Shown piece after piece: positions 6,828 through 20,495 of a stretch of 25,248 nucleotides of DNA. A program made the translations under genes and the position numbers. Every line of letters begins with the position of its first letter. The first letter of the stretch is position 1. The notes beneath the pieces were generated by a model. That model ran no database searches and was not told the origin of the DNA. It saw only the letters and a program-made list of their open reading frames with translations. The stretch comes from a virus (taxonomy: Duplodnaviria > Heunggongvirae > Uroviricota > Caudoviricetes): positions 1-25,248 of IMG/VR virus record IMGVR_UViG_2700989400_000006; one strand, written 5' to 3'.

Positions 6828-7913
6828 TTAGCTCCTGTTCTTATCTAATTGTGCATTTCGCAATTTATCGTTCAGCACCAATATTTCACCAACTGTTTGT
6901 TCAAAACGCCCGGACTCAAGTTCAACCCCAATCGTGCGACGCCCCAATCCCATTGCTGCTTTTATTGTTGCCCCCGATCCCATAAAAAAATCCGCAACCA
7001 CATCCCCCGGACGACTGCTGGCAGAAATTATCTGACGCAACATATCCGCCGGTTTTTCGCAGGGATGCTTACCCGGATAATACTGTACGGGCTTATGCGT
7101 CCAGACATCCGTATAAGGAACGGCGGCCGATACAGAAAAATAACGCCGCAGAGATTTGTATTCCTCAAGCAGACTGGCATATTGCCGGTTCAGTTCACTG
7201 TATGTGCTGACCAGCAGTTGGTGTGGCGTTGCCAGCTCCCCACGCTGGTGTTTTTCTTCTGCAACACGCGCGAACAGCGCCTGCAGTTTTCTGTAATCAG
7301 CTTCGTTCGGTAACTGCCACTGACTGGTACCAAACCAGTGCGACACCATGTTTTTCTTTCCGGTGGCTTCCGCTATCTGTTTGGACGTTATTCCCAGTGA
7401 TTCACGCGCATCACGAAAGTAAAAAATCAGCGGGGCCATGACGTGTTGTTTAAGCTCGCGCTCCTTTGCCGCATAGCCGGCATTTTTTGGCTGATATGGC
7501 CACTGATAATGTTCGGCAAACAGAATGCGCTCTGTTGCCGGGAAATACGCCCGCAGGCTTTCTTTGTTGCACCCGTTCCAGCGTCCGGACGGCTTCGCCC
7601 AGATAATGTGGTTCAGCACATTAAAGCGCTCACGCATCATGATTTCGATATCAGATGCCAGGCGATGACCACAAAACAGGTAAAGACTTCCGGCAGGCTT
7701 CAGTACCCGCCAGAACTGAGCCAGACACTGGTCCAGCCATTTTAGGTAATCATCGTCGCCCTTCCACTGGTTATCCCAGCCCTCGGGCTTCACTTTAAAA
7801 TATGGCGGGTCTGTGACTATAAGATCGACAGAGTTTTCCGATAAGGTCTGGATAAATTCCAGGCAATCAGTGTTGATTAACTCACAACTGGATATTTTTA
7901 CAGTATTAGCCAT
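6828..7913 (-). CDS. DNA methyltransferase, N6-adenine/N4-cytosine class
   Basis: 361-aa ORF with the catalytic DPPY motif (LIVTDPPYF) near the N-terminus and a glycine-rich AdoMet-binding motif near the C-terminus (FFMGSGAT); this order is typical of the N6_N4 methyltransferase family. Confidence 0.9.
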   Translation of the reverse strand: MANTVKISSCELINTDCLEFIQTLSENSVDLIVTDPPYFKVKPEGWDNQWKGDDDYLKWLDQCLAQFWRVLKPAGSLYLFCGHRLASDIEIMMRERFNVLNHIIWAKPSGRWNGCNKESLRAYFPATERILFAEHYQWPYQPKNAGYAAKERELKQHVMAPLIFYFRDARESLGITSKQIAEATGKKNMVSHWFGTSQWQLPNEADYRKLQALFARVAEEKHQRGELATPHQLLVSTYSELNRQYASLLEEYKSLRRYFSVSAAVPYTDVWTHKPVQYYPGKHPCEKPADMLRQIISASSRPGDVVADFFMGSGATIKAAMGLGRRTIGVELESGRFEQTVGEILVLNDKLRNAQLDKNRS

Positions 7914-8435: not shown

Positions 8436-9149
8436 TTAACGCACTCTGATAGTATTAATTTCAAAATCATTAATATTTCCGCTATTAAATATAACGAATT
8501 TCTTACCCCCACTCCTGTATGATTTCGATAACACCAGACGATCATCATAACGCGCAATAATGTAATACCATACATTCTCATAGTGGATCGCCTGATATTC
8601 CCTCTTAAACTGTGGTTTGTACCAACCGGCAATAAGAGAGAATGCCCAGAAATAAATCATAAACCCAGCCATCATGAACTCAATTCGGTGATGGCGAATA
8701 AAAGACATTTCCGAAAAACATTTGACTGAAACAAGTCTTCTTCCAGACCTGACAAAAAGCGTGATTGTAAAGGCAGCAAGAATGCAGAAAATCAGTACAT
8801 CTGGCTCAACATGCTGATGAATTACCGAAAACTCCAGAACAGGTGGAATAAAAAGCAGCAATATCGCGAGAAAAAGCCGGATAAAACTCAAATTTTGTAT
8901 ATTGCGCTTTTGTTTTATGCCCAAAAAGAAAACAATACCAACTCCCCATCCAATAAGGAATATAACGATAACTGTCACAGCATAAAACAAACTTCGTGCA
9001 ACATCATCGACACCAGCCCCGACAACCCACCATGGAAAGCCATAGTAAAATGAAGTACCCCATCCATAGAAATAAGCGCTTCCCCATCCTAGACAGCCCA
9101 TATAAGCAACAAAAAGTGAAGAGTTTCTGAGCAGAGCACTGTCATTCAT
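8436..9149 (-). CDS. Integral membrane protein (237 aa) encoded on an AT-rich moron
   Basis: Four to five hydrophobic, Trp/Tyr/Phe-rich segments in the first ~170 aa followed by a soluble C-terminal tail; first gene downstream of the tR'-like terminator; hand counts on sampled 60-nt lines give ~27% G+C. Confidence 0.6.
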   Translation of the reverse strand: MNDSALLRNSSLFVAYMGCLGWGSAYFYGWGTSFYYGFPWWVVGAGVDDVARSLFYAVTVIVIFLIGWGVGIVFFLGIKQKRNIQNLSFIRLFLAILLLFIPPVLEFSVIHQHVEPDVLIFCILAAFTITLFVRSGRRLVSVKCFSEMSFIRHHRIEFMMAGFMIYFWAFSLIAGWYKPQFKREYQAIHYENVWYYIIARYDDRLVLSKSYRSGGKKFVIFNSGNINDFEINTIRVR

Positions 9150-12226: not shown

Positions 12227-12382
12227 TTACTCCTCAGGTTCGTAAGCTGTGAAGACAGCGACCTCCGTCTGGCCGGTTCGGATTCGTACCTCGCAGAGGT
12301 CTTTCCTCGTTACCAGTGCCGTCACTATGACGGTTAAACAGATGACGATCAGGGCGATTAACATCGCCTTTTGCTGCTTCAT
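12227..12382 (-). CDS. hokD: Hok/Gef-family type I toxin (51 aa)
   Basis: MKQQKAMLIALIVICLTVIVTALVTRKDLCEVRIRTGQTEVAVFTAYEPEE matches my recollection of E. coli HokD (RelF). A perfect 9-bp hairpin (12198-12219) follows the stop, consistent with the folded 3' end of hok-type mRNAs. Confidence 0.9.
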   Translation of the reverse strand: MKQQKAMLIALIVICLTVIVTALVTRKDLCEVRIRTGQTEVAVFTAYEPEE

Positions 12383-12439
12383 AGCCTGCTTCTCCTTGCC
12401 TTTCGGCACGTAAGAGGCTAACCTAGATTTGCCGTTCAT
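12227..12439 (-). CDS. Mok-like upstream reading frame containing hok (70 aa, same frame)
   Basis: In-frame N-terminal extension MNGKSRLASYVPKGKEKQA preceding the Hok methionine, as in chromosomal mokC/hokC pairs (from memory). Confidence 0.5.
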   Translation of the reverse strand: MNGKSRLASYVPKGKEKQAMKQQKAMLIALIVICLTVIVTALVTRKDLCEVRIRTGQTEVAVFTAYEPEE

Positions 12440-12949
12440 AGATTGAGCCTCAGATTAATGTTAAACGTCTTGCAGGACGCGTAATGTTAACTGGGGCTTT
12501 TCTCTATCTGCCTTTGGTGTTCATGCCTGAGGCAGATAGCCTCAAGCACCCGCAGCAATTCTACTTAACTCCCGTCACCTCGCCAATATAAAATCAATCA
12601 GAAAGGCGATCCGTAAGAACAACAGCAAGACAATAAATTGCCATTACAGCCGCAATAGCTAGCGCACATTTGAGAACCAGCACGACAACCTCCTGTATTG
12701 GACGTACACCAATTCTGATAAATATGAGGCTGTCTCATCATTGATTCAATATAACTATTGGGTATAGTTTCTGTGATTTTGTTCTGTAGAAATGGAACAC
12801 AACAACCAGTCACCACCAGCACTTCTTTAAATACGCCAAGTCCGACGCAAGCTAACCTTCTAGTCCGCTTTGAGCGAAGAGCGGACATTGCTAACAGCAT
12901 CCTGTGTGAATCATTACGATCAAATCGATGACTAGATAAGTACAAACCG

Positions 12950-12978
12950 GAAAAGGGGCCTACTGACGAAGTAGGCCT
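12950..12978 (-). terminator. Intrinsic terminator of the three-gene cassette
   Basis: Minus-strand RNA: GGCCUACU-UCGUC-AGUAGGCC (perfect 8-bp stem) followed by CCUUUUCCGGUUU, starting 17 nt after the stop of the last cassette gene. Confidence 0.6.
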
Positions 12979-12994
12979 GAGTTCCTTATATATT

Positions 12995-13651
12995 TCACAA
13001 AATTCTGAGAGTTTCTAAGATGGATAAAAGTGTTGGAAGCTGACTCTCTCTCACACGGAATCTACCCGTCCTAGATAATTCCGTTTCAATTCCGTTAACG
13101 AAGAAATGTACGGAATCAAAAACGGCCGAACTATTCATGTATTTATTCTGATAAATTTCTTGGAGATTCTTTGAGCTTACTATTTTTGTCTTTGCTAAAG
13201 TAAAAGGATCAACAGAGATATTAGATAGAGACATGGATTTTATCTTGATGTCAAAGCCCTCAGAAAGACCATTTACAATTTTTCTCAGATCAAATTCTAC
13301 TGGTCTCAAGCCACTATCTTCACCAAATAGTTTTTGCACCATAGTATAAGGCACTTTCATACTTAATGGAGGATTAGTGGCATATAGTATGATTTTTTTC
13401 CCTTGTCTGACGCCAAAGTCCACATTTAAGTAAGTTGCTATTTCAACCTCTGAACGCTCGCCATTAGCATATTCTAAGCTTTGCTTGCTAATGCTTCTCA
13501 TGGTAAATCTTAGTTTAAGCACTTCAGAGTTATTAATGATTTGAAAACCATATCCTTTATCTTCATCATAGAGGTTGTCATTTACTTTATGTAATAACTC
13601 ACTTTTAGTTATATCCTTTTCTGCTTTATAAATTTTTACCTTTATCATCAT
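12995..13651 (-). CDS. Cassette gene C: uncharacterized protein (~218 aa), third gene of the AT-rich three-gene operon
   Basis: Start chosen at ATG 13651 (MMIKVKIYKAEKD...) with AGGAGG 6 nt upstream, overlapping the TGA of gene B as ATGA; the track start 13678 is TTG. No motif I recognise. Confidence 0.75.
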   Translation of the reverse strand: MMIKVKIYKAEKDITKSELLHKVNDNLYDEDKGYGFQIINNSEVLKLRFTMRSISKQSLEYANGERSEVEIATYLNVDFGVRQGKKIILYATNPPLSMKVPYTMVQKLFGEDSGLRPVEFDLRKIVNGLSEGFDIKIKSMSLSNISVDPFTLAKTKIVSSKNLQEIYQNKYMNSSAVFDSVHFFVNGIETELSRTGRFRVRESQLPTLLSILETLRIL

Positions 13652-14895
13652 CCAGCCTCCTGATTCAAAGTCTCGCAAGACATAGCTTTCGTTACTGGGT
13701 ATCGCTTGGTATGCTCTTCGATAATAAAGTCATTAATCAAAAATATTTTATCTTCTAATTGTTTCATGACTTGATCAAAGTCTGCGTCACTGAGTTTTTC
13801 TCTCTCTGCGGATGCAGAGTTGCTTTCTTTGTATAACGCTCTGAATTTTATATTTTTCCCAAGATATTTATCATCGAAACTAAGTTCAAAAGTTATAGTA
13901 TGATTCTTAACTACTGAGGAAAATGACTTCCATCGAATTAAGCTTCGATAAAACCCATCACTGCACAGTTCCTTAATTTGAGGTGCGTTCACTAATGATA
14001 GGCCATCATACGCGGCATTGTTAATGTTAAAAGTTAGGTTTTCATCATCGTCAGATGCCATTTCCTGATTATTAATGTCATCATCATTTTCGTTATCTGT
14101 AGAAGGTGAAATCTTGTTTAATAACTCTTGTGTTTCTTCGTTATTATTTCCTTCGAGATTATCTCCATTAATATCCAGAGATGTTTTTATTCTGCTTACT
14201 CTAACCTTTTCAAGACCAGCATATTCAAGTCCTGTTTTTTTATAATTTCCATCAAAATCATAAAGATGAACAGCAAAAATATTCCTAAGATCTGTATCAA
14301 CGATACTTGATAAATCTATTTCGTTGACAACTATGTTGTTACAAACTGTTGATGAATATGTATCAATTATTTGCTTGAGAATTTCTGAAATGCGTGGCGT
14401 ATAGTTATATCTTACTGAAACATATCCTTTTTTTACTATAAAAACTATACTCCCACTGTACAATTTTTTCTGCTGAAACTTACCCCTTCTAAAATCAAAC
14501 TCAGTATAATCAATAGATATATGATAGGTTTGCAAGCCTGAGTAATGATCAATTTTCTCATGCCCTAGCAACTTGGGTCTATTTTCTTTCACTTTGTTTA
14601 CAACGTCATAGAGTTTCTCTATATCAAATTCTTCATATATACGTTTTACTGAGAAGACGTCTTGGCTGGGTTTGGTTGCCAGTTTATCTTGTACTTCTCT
14701 GATGTGATTATATGAAAATGGCAGGTCTGATAATTTTTCTATCAATACCTCTTTTGATAAGTTAGATGGGAAAATTATCCCTCTATTGAAGGCGATTTTC
14801 CTTAATGTAACATCTGTGATTTTTGCACTGTTAGAGTGGAGGGCGGTATAAATGTCACTTTCGTTTGAAAACAACGTAGCTTGATATTTATTCAT
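13648..14895 (-). CDS. Cassette gene B: uncharacterized protein (415 aa) with a central acidic low-complexity linker
   Basis: ATG 14895 lies 10 nt after the gene A stop with AGGAG in between. Residues ~240-285 (NNNEETQELLNKISPSTDNENDDDINNQEMASDDDENL) form an Asn/Asp/Glu-rich linker between two halves. No Walker A/B or other motif I recognise. Confidence 0.8.
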   Translation of the reverse strand: MNKYQATLFSNESDIYTALHSNSAKITDVTLRKIAFNRGIIFPSNLSKEVLIEKLSDLPFSYNHIREVQDKLATKPSQDVFSVKRIYEEFDIEKLYDVVNKVKENRPKLLGHEKIDHYSGLQTYHISIDYTEFDFRRGKFQQKKLYSGSIVFIVKKGYVSVRYNYTPRISEILKQIIDTYSSTVCNNIVVNEIDLSSIVDTDLRNIFAVHLYDFDGNYKKTGLEYAGLEKVRVSRIKTSLDINGDNLEGNNNEETQELLNKISPSTDNENDDDINNQEMASDDDENLTFNINNAAYDGLSLVNAPQIKELCSDGFYRSLIRWKSFSSVVKNHTITFELSFDDKYLGKNIKFRALYKESNSASAEREKLSDADFDQVMKQLEDKIFLINDFIIEEHTKRYPVTKAMSCETLNQEAG

Positions 14896-14905
14896 GTCAT
14901 ACTCC

Positions 14906-15997
14906 TTATGAAAAGTGACATTTTCTATTCACCTGCTTGCTGGCAACCTGGTACTCAAATATAGATAGCTTTTGATTAACAAAAGGAATGGATACTATTT
15001 TTTCCTTTAACGTTTCTATATGAGATTGAGTGAAAGAATATATTCCTATGTAATCATTAATGGCGGATTGCAAATGAATGCTTGAGTGTGATGAGAACGG
15101 AGTTATAACAAATATTTTGTTAAATTGATTGAGTAATTGATAGTTAAATATATACTCTAAAAGAAATATAAAGTGGTTACTGGAATCAATCTCTTCCTTC
15201 CAGAATATATTCAATATTTTATTTCTTATTCTATCGCCACCATCATTTCTAATATATTCGTGTTCATATGAGTAAAAAATCATCCCAGATGTTATCATTT
15301 CAATTGTGGCTGGAAGGATTTTCCCTTTCGTTGCTATTTTATTATGTTTGTCAGGGTAAAAATATGTACAGTTCTCTATCTCAGGAATTTTTTGCCATAA
15401 CATATTTGTTTCTTGTGTTACTTTGTCAGTAATTCCTCTTCTAGTCTCGATGTGTTCTGTAACATCTAGTAAAAATCTGATCATAGTTGGGTCAAAAACG
15501 GCAATCACAGAGTTCTCTGGAAAATCATAACTTGCTGTGGCTGCTCCATTTAATTTCTCAATTAAATCAGAGTCATATTTATTGTCATGATTATATATAA
15601 AAAGTAGGCCGTTAACTTGATATTTCTCATTTGTGCTGTCAACAAATAGACGCCGCCACTCAGGACTTCTTGGCGCGCAAGCTACCTGTTGTGATAAACT
15701 TCGTACAGTGTTCAATATTGATTTTGTACCGTCAAGCGTGCTGGCACAATAAGATTTTAAATCTGTTTGTATATACTGAGTTATATCTGAATAAGGATCT
15801 TTATATTTGAAGACTACATCCGTAGGATGAGTTTTTTTTGGGTTTTCAGATAAAAGTTGTTTAGCGTTTAGATGAGATCTCAAACAACAGTCCCAACTTA
15901 TATCCGTTGTATTTTGGGTTTTCCAGCCTAACTCATCAAAAATTCTACTGGAAATGATACCTGCAATCTCATCAATATTCTTAGTTTCGCCGCCCAC
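14906..15997 (-). CDS. Cassette gene A: uncharacterized protein (363 aa), first gene of the operon
   Basis: GTG start at 15997 preceded by GGAGGA; no in-frame ATG upstream. The N-terminal ~90 aa carry a pattern compatible with, but not diagnostic of, a PD-(D/E)xK nuclease core (FDE ... HPTDVVF ... IQTDLK). Confidence 0.7.
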   Translation of the reverse strand: MGGETKNIDEIAGIISSRIFDELGWKTQNTTDISWDCCLRSHLNAKQLLSENPKKTHPTDVVFKYKDPYSDITQYIQTDLKSYCASTLDGTKSILNTVRSLSQQVACAPRSPEWRRLFVDSTNEKYQVNGLLFIYNHDNKYDSDLIEKLNGAATASYDFPENSVIAVFDPTMIRFLLDVTEHIETRRGITDKVTQETNMLWQKIPEIENCTYFYPDKHNKIATKGKILPATIEMITSGMIFYSYEHEYIRNDGGDRIRNKILNIFWKEEIDSSNHFIFLLEYIFNYQLLNQFNKIFVITPFSSHSSIHLQSAINDYIGIYSFTQSHIETLKEKIVSIPFVNQKLSIFEYQVASKQVNRKCHFS

Positions 15998-16287
15998 GCT
16001 TCCTCCATAGTTCGTTGTTTTATCTAGTGAAGATCTGATTCATGGTTTTCCAAGCCCATGCGCAAAACAATTAATCAAGTAAGAATAATCTTAATCAATT
16101 TAATCTTTTTTATTTGAATCATCAAGAGCCCCATTACTGATAGGCATCAGTTGGTGGTATCTCTGCTCAAGCTTCAGTAAAATCTGGTTTGCTACTTCCG
16201 CTCCTGGCACAAAGCGGACAACCGCGCTAGCTCTACCCTGTGCCACAAAATGTCAATTTGCATCTGAACTAATGCACTTTAATCTCG

Positions 16288-16710
16288 TCACTTCAGTAAA
16301 TACCGAACATCCCCCTGATAAAACGACAATATGCGCTGCATAACTTCGCTTTTACGACACTCAGTACAAATCATATTATGACGCCTGTCGTAACGACGTA
16401 TTTCTCCATCAGGTAATGACCAGATAAGGTCCGGATCAACCGCAGATGGTTTCTTCAGCTTTGCCCTTGAGAGCTTTTTACGGGCATTTTGCCAGTCCTT
16501 ACGCGCCTGTTCAGACGGGAATAACCCGTAACCAGAGTTGTATACATCGCCACTGGCAACCAGCTCTCTGGCCAGAACGTTCATCAGATATCTTGTTGCC
16601 CCAGTTTTAGTTTCCAGTTGTCGTAACGTCTCGCGCCCACTCTGGCGTACGAGTTCAACAACCTGCCCTTTAATTTTTTCCCGCTCTTCTTGTGTAAAAA
16701 CTTTTGCCAC
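16288..16710 (-). CDS. Hypothetical phage protein (140 aa) downstream of the replication gene
   Basis: ORF from the track; basic C-terminal half (RKKLSRAKLKK) and a possible helix-turn-helix (LRQLETKTGATRYLMNVLARELVASG). Confidence 0.5.
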   Translation of the reverse strand: MAKVFTQEEREKIKGQVVELVRQSGRETLRQLETKTGATRYLMNVLARELVASGDVYNSGYGLFPSEQARKDWQNARKKLSRAKLKKPSAVDPDLIWSLPDGEIRRYDRRHNMICTECRKSEVMQRILSFYQGDVRYLLK

Positions 16711-19916: not shown

Positions 19917-20437
19917 TCCATCCATGTTTACGGGATAGATAAAGATATATCGCTTCGAAACCATCGACATGGTTTGGATAGCCTTCCTCAGCAGCAAGGT
20001 TATCCCCAAAACATTCAAGAATATAATTTAAACGCGCTGTTTAATAATGAATCTTCCAGCGAGTCTGATTTAGTTTGCTGACCATTTTAATTTTATCCTC
20101 CATTGAGGTTACTGGTTGAGAATGGAGACCACACGTGACAGCGCGTGGTCGTGCGCCGGACACGGATAAGAATCCGGCACAAACAGTTTACTGAAAGGAT
20201 ATATCCCTGAAAAGTCAGGGCATAACGCGAAAGCGCACGGCGAAGTCATTCCTCCCTTTGTTGTGTACTACTGACATCTTCGTCTGTGCGCTTCCGGTTG
20301 TGGCAATCCGCGAAATGGCGCGGCGGTAAGTATGGCGGGGTTATTCCTTCCCCGTTGAGGACACCGGGTTGTCAGGTTGACCATACGCTTAAGTGGCAAC
20401 CCCGCTGCAACGCCCTCTGTTATCAATTTTCTGGTGA

Positions 20438-20495
20438 CGTTTGGCGGTATCAGTTTTACTCCGTGACTGCTCTGCCGCCCTTTTTAAAGTGAATT
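20438..20495 (+). ncRNA. dicF: DicF small RNA (ftsZ-targeting sRNA of the dicB operon)
   Basis: TTTCTGGTGACGTTTGGCGGTATCAGTTTTACTCCGTGACTGCTCTGCCGCCC followed by TTTTT matches the 53-nt DicF sequence as I recall it, including the terminal GC-rich stem and U-tail; it sits upstream of dicB as in Qin. Confidence 0.8.

Follow-up and report, generated by a model that had tools for sequence, protein, structure and literature searches.

A three-gene operon in a lambdoid prophage

The DNA analyzed here, called the window, is the 25,248-nt sequence of the IMG/VR virus record IMGVR_UViG_2700989400_000006, which represents a lambdoid E. coli prophage of the Qin/Rac type. We studied a cassette of three consecutive genes on its minus strand that encode the proteins Hp1, Hp2 and Hp3 (genes A, B and C). 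Homology searches identify the cassette as a divergent form of the anti-phage defence system 3HP, and profile comparisons link Hp1 and Hp2 to the two proteins of the defence system GAPS4. An earlier reading of the sequence alone, referred to below as the original prediction, had described the cassette as a candidate novel system. The positions of the genes and signals are given in Table 1.

Table 1. Features of the cassette and its border in the window
Feature	Positions	Strand	Basis
Acquired cargo module (cassette with its own leader and terminator)	12886-16187	.	blastn against the E. coli 042 locus; G+C contrast
Candidate promoter TTGATG-N16-TTAAAT, within the cargo	16098-16125	-	weak, inferred
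Hp1, GAPS4a-type PD-(D/E)xK nuclease, predicted effector, 363 aa	14906-15997	-	PADLOC, BLASTP, PF26115, hhalign
Hp1 putative catalytic core H57-P-T-D60 ... T78-D79-L-K81-S-Y83	15749-15829	-	family alignment
Hp2, GAPS4b-like, N-terminal helical module and RdgC-fold core, predicted DNA sensor/scaffold, 415 aa	13648-14895	-	
Hp2 N-terminal helical module, residues 12-72, weakly HeH/SAP-like	14680-14862	-	AlphaFold2 model, weak Pfam match
Hp2 disordered acidic linker, residues 244-289, net charge -14	14029-14166	-	predicted local distance difference test (pLDDT) <50, composition
Hp3, small basic protein with predicted RdgC fold, 218 aa, component that GAPS4 lacks	12995-13651	-	
Terminator-like hairpin with interrupted T tract	12944-12977	-	read from sequence, fold computed
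sok RNA	12377-12551	-	Rfam RF01794, 111.7 bits

The open reading frames (ORFs) have exactly the coordinates and sizes claimed in the original prediction, and the tight coupling between them was found as described. Gene A starts with GTG after a GGAGGA sequence. Its TAA stop codon is separated by 10 nt (ggagtatgac, which includes GGAG) from the ATG of gene B, and the stop codon of gene B overlaps the start codon of gene C as ATGA, with AGGAGG upstream. The hairpin behind the last gene (GGCCTACT/AGTAGGCC, positions 12977-12957) lies 17 nt past the stop codon and has a perfect 8-bp stem, as noted earlier, with a 5-nt loop and a calculated folding energy of -17.7 kcal/mol (z = -2.7). The U-rich tract that was said to follow it turned out to be weak (CCTTTTCCGGTTT), and the hairpin was missed by the terminator scan, the tail window containing only four T.

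Comparison by blastn with E. coli 042, in which the same prophage backbone carries other cargo, showed that homology ends at position 12885 and resumes at 16188, delimiting a cargo module of 3.3 kb. The G+C content is 0.30-0.36 across positions 13001-16000 and 0.42-0.56 in the flanks; the AT-richness claimed for the cassette is thus real, although the flanks had been put too high, at 50-65%. The 290-bp gap upstream of gene A (15998-16287), originally described as a non-coding region, indeed contains no convincing gene. However, since the cargo boundary relative to E. coli 042 lies at 16187, about 100 bp of it (16188-16287) belong to the conserved backbone. The weak candidate promoter was not called by the consensus scan; it is located in the sole upstream block that is kept between the window and a locus of the same clade with 76% identity. 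A 48-aa ORF with a GTG start (16100-16246) crosses the cargo/backbone boundary 16187/16188 and for this reason is probably not a gene.

The cassette belongs to a divergent clade of 3HP

When the three proteins were compared with defence system models, they matched, in gene order, the PADLOC models for 3HP (PDLC03004/5/6; DefenseFinder name Rst_3HP) with E-values of 7.6e-41 for Hp1, 9.6e-11 for Hp2 and 3.8e-11 for Hp3. The scores were low (139/39/41 bits) and the hidden Markov model (HMM) coverage of Hp2 was only 57%. The validated 3HP proteins, taken from Table S2A of Rousset et al. 2022, score 792/820/520 bits with the same models, which confirmed them as the model source. In direct BLASTP comparison with these reference proteins, identity was 33% for protein 1 (E 7e-49), 25% for protein 2, in the N-terminal half only (E 7e-12), and 22% for protein 3 (E 2e-12). 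PHROGs places the proteins in three families to which no function is assigned. Searches against Pfam and NCBIfam were uninformative for all three, and profile searches against PDB sequences returned nothing for Hp1, Hp2 or Hp3.

The reference 3HP comprises three genes from a P2 hotspot that protect E. coli against phage P1, the only one of eight phages against which the system was active (Rousset et al. 2022, PMC9122126). The original publication calls its components 'three hypothetical proteins with no clear predicted domain', and in a 2024 survey Rst_3HP was still unclassifiable. Based on the homology of all three proteins, we assign the cassette to a divergent clade of this known and validated system, carried as prophage cargo, and not to a new kind of system. 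The claim of novelty and unknown function falls because there is confident homology to a named defence system, an outcome that the original prediction itself had listed as counter-evidence; the profile searches it proposed hit the Hp1, Hp2 and Hp3 models. Its reading of the cassette as defence cargo was right in kind.

The cassette and the reference system consist of the same three genes in the same order, all pairs are homologous, and both are prophage cargo. The proteins have 363/415/218 aa in the window and 333/359/227 aa in the reference. They differ in Hp2, which in the window aligns to its counterpart in the N-terminal half only and has a longer acidic linker, and in location, since the cassette occupies a lambdoid slot between the Ren-like gene and hok whereas the reference lies in a P2 hotspot.

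The trio is conserved as a unit, a check that had been proposed along with the original prediction. For this analysis, 75 viral-contig loci were fetched with a 100-sequence Hp1 alignment, and the loci were analyzed with iteratively built HMMs. The genes for Hp1, Hp2 and Hp3 followed each other in the same orientation, separated by -104 to +35 nt, in 73 of the 81 loci, and six more were cut by contig ends. Hp3 was absent in only two of the 81, namely a Kiritimatiellae locus and one locus with a shortened Hp2. Homolog searches also revealed consecutive locus tags for the trio in Yersinia, Morganella, Vibrio and Shewanella. Conservation of the window clade extends over Enterobacterales, Vibrio, Aeromonas and Shewanella, with identities of 37-95%. 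An exhaustive Hp1 profile search gave 565 clusters at 50% identity; among the best 150 of these, the window clade accounts for only two, and the median identity of these 150 to the Hp1 of the window is 28%. Relatives are found at P2 hotspots, at prophage ends, beside CI repressors or integrases, and in a restriction-modification (RM) island.

The Kiritimatiellae locus comes from a metagenome-assembled genome (MAG; JAFXYO010000005.1, locus L003, 4968-7110) and encodes a 3HP-type Hp1 (HPTD...TDLK) and an Hp2 without Hp3. It adjoins genes for a PLD-helicase and a type IIG methyltransferase, i.e. an RM/helicase island. This locus could represent a transition between the three genes of 3HP and the two genes of GAPS4, or else a degraded copy.

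Hp1 is related to the nuclease GAPS4a

GAPS4, which comes from Vibrio GMT islands, consists of two genes, a fused single-gene form also belonging to its architecture (Mahata et al.). It has been described as a DNase triggered by DNA breaks that forms a 2:2 complex, can be triggered by nalidixic acid or by a DNase of the type VI secretion system (T6SS), is inactive with D49A/D59A and is attenuated by phage HNH homing endonucleases (bioRxiv 10.1101/2025.09.07.674715). In the predicted complex, GAPS4a is docked on the helical domains of a GAPS4b ring. The E. coli system GAPS4_RiKo has a broad phage range. For our comparisons, the sequences of GAPS4a and GAPS4b of E. coli RiKo were transcribed from AlphaFold3 mmCIF files of the GAPS4 authors, using the residue lists, so that transcription errors are possible; the transcribed proteins were recovered at 100% in two viral contigs, L085 and L086 (IMG/VR UViG_2579779007_000009 and UViG_2623620496_000007).

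In precomputed tables, the Pfam family PF26115 (PDDEXK_GAPS4) is assigned to all 72 Hp1 homologs, one of which is 99% identical to the Hp1 of the window. The local Pfam scan of the window protein did not return PF26115, as that copy of Pfam was apparently without the model. Profile-profile alignment of Hp1 with GAPS4a_RiKo (hhalign) reached 96% probability at an E-value of 1-2e-9 over more than 200 columns, well past the catalytic core, and GAPS4a matched the PADLOC Hp1 model with an E-value of 2.9e-5. Among 100 diverse representatives, the Hp1 constellation E4...H57-P-x-D60...D79-L-K81 is strongly conserved, with E4, H57, D60, K81 and S82 invariant and D79 present in at least 90%. The motif HPxD...xD(L/F)K occurs in all 150 top Hp1 representatives. 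D60 of Hp1 was aligned opposite D49 of GAPS4a, whose exchange in the D49A mutant abolishes defence (bioRxiv 10.1101/2025.09.07.674715). These comparisons identify Hp1 as a homolog, along most of its length, of the PD-(D/E)xK DNase GAPS4a, in which the predicted catalytic residues are retained. The statement in the original prediction that none of the three proteins carries a motif of a known family was thus wrong, as gene A has a nuclease signature. The active sites are not the same: the HGxD...SxK of GAPS4a corresponds to HPxD...DxK in Hp1, whose canonical Asp (D79-x-K81) takes the place of the Ser in Ser-x-Lys.

Hp2 is remotely related to GAPS4b, and Hp2 and Hp3 are modelled with an RdgC fold

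A first comparison of Hp2 with GAPS4b, using a shallow profile against one sequence, was negative. Further GAPS4 loci were collected from viral contigs and one genome-collection scan, the sources being Silvania, a Clostridiales MAG, Desulfobacteraceae, Pseudoalteromonas, Desulfocapsa, Shewanella, Aeromonas and Enterovibrio, and the final profiles comprised 131 Hp2 and 12 GAPS4b sequences. With growing profile depth the hhalign E-value improved from 0.013 over 1.3e-4 to 1.9e-10, whereas the controls stayed flat. The final alignment had 96.9% probability and a score of 83 over 252 collinear columns, in which Hp2 residues 6-305 correspond to GAPS4b residues 5-286. A reversed alignment scored 13.6, 39 column shuffles had a mean of 14.9 and a maximum of 22.5, and against GAPS4b Hp3 scored 12.3 and Hp1 16.6. 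A plain Hp2 HMM also matched the Clostridiales GAPS4b (E 1.7e-6). According to these profile comparisons, Hp2 is a remote homolog of GAPS4b. As in the cassette, the nuclease gene of GAPS4 comes first and its partner follows, and the predicted GAPS4b ring fits the RdgC fold of Hp2.

The AlphaFold2 model of Hp2 (pLDDT 76.8, predicted template modelling score 0.68) consists of a four-helix N-terminal module, a beta-rich core and a disordered linker. The helical module, which has a pI of 9.05, is the best-conserved stretch common to Hp2 and GAPS4b. It contains a weak Pfam HeH match at residues 30-53 (E 0.15), and Rousset et al. reported Ish1/HeH at residues 23-53 of the reference Hp2 from HHpred.

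The structure models show that Hp2 and Hp3 share the fold of RdgC (PDB 2OWL), Hp3 being about 80 residues shorter than RdgC, and Foldseek against viral models returned phage proteins annotated as RdgC. At the sequence level, neither protein matched the Pfam RdgC, NCBIfam or PDB profiles, and identity to RdgC is 8-9%. RdgC is a RecA modulator that forms a ring-shaped dimer proposed to bind double-stranded DNA through a 30 A pore. The fold of RexA, which is the partner that binds DNA in the Rex exclusion system of lambda, resembles that of RdgC more distantly, and IML3-CHL4 is an RdgC-fold heterodimer on DNA. The pI of Hp3 (9.2) and the predicted GAPS4b ring are hints that Hp2 and Hp3 may form a DNA-binding ring.

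Hp3 distinguishes the cassette from GAPS4, which has two genes. All of the 15 GAPS4 loci analyzed are two-gene loci, and no Hp3-like ORF was found in any of them, even at E <=10. Hp3 was also considered as a split-off part or paralog of GAPS4b, Hp2 or Hp1, which was rejected at the sequence level (hhalign E 0.16-0.6). We conclude that 3HP is a three-subunit relative of two-gene GAPS4 that is built around RdgC-fold proteins. This link was absent from the literature searched, and the GAPS4 papers mention neither 3HP nor RdgC.

The GAPS4_RiKo genes (GAPS4a 100% identical) occupy positions 4001-6074 of contigs L085/L086 within a P2-like prophage. Of their neighbours, a 175-aa gene is presumably for tail-fibre assembly and the other, recognised by eye, is one that we take to encode tail sheath FI. 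The site is presumably the Z/fun variable locus of P2. If this identification of Z/fun holds, GAPS4 and the reference 3HP are both cargo of P2-type hotspots.

A predicted DNA-sensing nuclease complex and its alternatives

We regard it as reasonably probable that the cassette is a divergent 3HP defence, a three-subunit relative of GAPS4, in which the Hp1 DNase is controlled by a DNA-binding assembly of the RdgC-fold proteins Hp2 and Hp3. In a presumably active window clade, Hp1 would be the effector, a GAPS4a-type PD-(D/E)xK DNase, while Hp2 and Hp3 would form a ring- or horseshoe-shaped assembly on DNA, composed either of an Hp2 dimer plus Hp3 or of an Hp2-Hp3 heterodimer. This assembly would dock Hp1 via the N-terminal helical module of Hp2 and keep it silent, an arrangement that mirrors the predicted complex of GAPS4a on the helical domains of GAPS4b. 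Free or broken DNA from an infecting phage would then engage the assembly and license Hp1, which would degrade DNA non-selectively. The phage would be stopped, probably at the cost of the infected cell, i.e. by an abortive mechanism.

Several observations weigh against this proposal. The window clade is only 22-33% identical to the validated 3HP system, and the homology between Hp2 and GAPS4b is confined to Hp2 residues 6-305, the C-terminal thirds of the two proteins giving no alignment signal. The consensus promoter scan of the operon leader found none. Hp3 appears obligatory (73/81 loci) although GAPS4 works without it, and therefore a real functional difference is implied. The active-site variant of Hp1 may mean that its regulation or chemistry differs from that of GAPS4a. 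Finally, the reference 3HP acts on P1 only and GAPS4_RiKo on a broad range of phages, which speaks against the same trigger in both systems. Taken together with the obligatory Hp3 and the canonical DxK site, the P1-only spectrum indicates that the trigger may be different from that of GAPS4.

Alternatively, the cassette could be a genuine 3HP-family defence with a trigger and outcome unlike those of GAPS4. Hp2 and Hp3 could, for example, sense a phage protein or a replication or recombination intermediate of the P1 type, and Hp1 could cut only phage DNA, so that the host is spared. The narrow spectrum of the reference system compared with the broad one of GAPS4, the extra obligatory subunit, the altered active site and the C-terminal parts of Hp2 and GAPS4b that cannot be aligned all speak for this possibility. 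We nevertheless hold it to be rather unlikely, as Hp1 and Hp2 are homologous to GAPS4a and GAPS4b, respectively, RdgC-fold proteins bind DNA non-specifically, and no evidence for a protein trigger was found. A function in phage recombination or repair instead of defence is very unlikely. The cassette lies between the replication genes and the RusA/nin genes, RdgC modulates RecA, and lytic as well as temperate phages encode RdgC homologs; the nuclease and the two RdgC-like proteins might accordingly be imagined as an accessory module for phage recombination or repair that modulates RecA or host recombination to the benefit of the prophage, like Orf, Rap and RusA of the nin region. Yet for all three genes there are homologs with anti-phage activity shown by experiment, and GAPS4 defence needs the nuclease Asp. 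Moreover, the cassette is a rare, AT-rich and self-contained cargo in a slot with unrelated genes elsewhere, and its relatives are located at P2 hotspots, beside integrases or CI repressors and inside an RM island, a distribution expected of defence cargo but not of core recombination genes.

We consider it highly improbable that the cassette, as inactive or decaying cargo, serves no function in its present host. One of the 11 E. coli copies, that of E. coli 30COLEC (NZ_CP070930.1, 2525970-2530378), is interrupted by ISApl1, an insertion sequence (IS) of the IS30 family, which suggests occasional inactivation, and the lack of a consensus promoter points in the same direction. On the other hand, the three ORFs are intact and have Shine-Dalgarno sites, translational coupling and catalytic residues, ten of the 11 E. 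coli copies are uninterrupted at an identity of at least 97%, and the breadth of conservation of the clade, from Enterobacterales to Shewanella, also argues against decay. A toxin-antitoxin reading was set aside since the cassette lacks a small gene of the antitoxin type and each of its proteins has homologs among those of defence systems.

Beyond the proposal of an Hp1 nuclease held silent by an Hp2/Hp3 assembly, it is possible, and suggested here tentatively, that 3HP and GAPS4 are two branches of one widespread defence superfamily. In both, a ring of RdgC-fold proteins would sense free DNA ends topologically and license a PD-(D/E)xK DNase, and the 3HP ring would be heteromeric (Hp2 and Hp3, like IML3-CHL4), shifting the DNA structure that is sensed and the phages that are excluded. 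If true, this would give orphan 3HP its first mechanism and extend the precedent of RexA for RdgC-fold phage sensors. The cassette itself is ordinary, being a divergent copy of a catalogued system in a prophage hotspot that standard defence-finder models already touch. The value lies in the comparison, which ties 3HP proteins 1 and 2 to GAPS4a and GAPS4b, gives proteins 2 and 3 a predicted RdgC ring fold, and suggests that DNA binders with an RdgC fold (RexA, GAPS4b, Hp2 and Hp3) are repeatedly used as infection sensors. It also makes orphan 3HP testable via the catalytic Asp and Lys, sensitisation by nalidixic acid, the Hp2-Hp3 ring and inhibition by homing endonucleases.

The cargo slot and other features of the prophage

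The gene order in the window is Nu1, lysis genes, an orphan type II methylase, Q, RusA, DUF968, hok with sok RNA, the cassette, and beyond it a DUF977 gene, a replication initiator, immunity genes and DicF/dicB. The DicF antisense RNA (20429-20480; Rfam RF00039, 76.7 bits) lies upstream of dicB, and because of this the prophage can be described as Qin/Kim-like. The DUF977 gene just upstream of the cassette (16288-16710) is a member of PHROG 142, 'Ren-like exclusion protein'. On its downstream side the cassette directly adjoins a hok/sok type I toxin-antitoxin locus (12227-12551), the hokD-like ORF of which ends at 12227. In every genome examined, hok/sok is the conserved right border of the cargo slot.

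Of 5426 complete E. coli genomes, 4070 have the DUF977 gene and only 11 the cassette. The cassette was seen in two types of prophage, a Rac-type one at ttcA and a Qin-type one beside rspB/ynfA. In other E. coli the interval from DUF977 to hokD contains two hypothetical genes, an Sll1717 P-loop ATPase (split by IS3), QueH, an alpha/beta hydrolase or a 5.4-kb block, and the cargo differed in each of the six strains checked. When the cassette was compared with a phage collection by megablast, only a 100-bp backbone flank matched. The reading of this site as a variable lambdoid moron slot with horizontally acquired cargo is supported, as the same slot holds unrelated cargo in other strains; the G+C contrast agrees with it. 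The junction between the DUF977 (Ren-like) gene and hokD looks like an uncatalogued lambdoid cargo hotspot, and is documented here for Qin/Rac-type prophages as one comparable to the P2 and P4 hotspots.

Two further genes of the window deserve mention. In Shiga toxin (Stx) phages the toxin genes are located directly downstream of Q. At this position the window has a second stretch of low G+C content (0.39-0.40) with a minus-strand ORF of 237 aa (8436-9149), for which there was no match in Pfam or PADLOC and only one, of unknown function, in PHROGs (PHROG 1521); this ORF may be another moron. The stand-alone type II DNA methyltransferase (6828-7913) was recognised by Pfam (N6_N4_Mtase) and by PADLOC (MTase_II, E 2e-152). 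It has no adjacent restriction gene and is probably an orphan phage methylase of the anti-restriction type.

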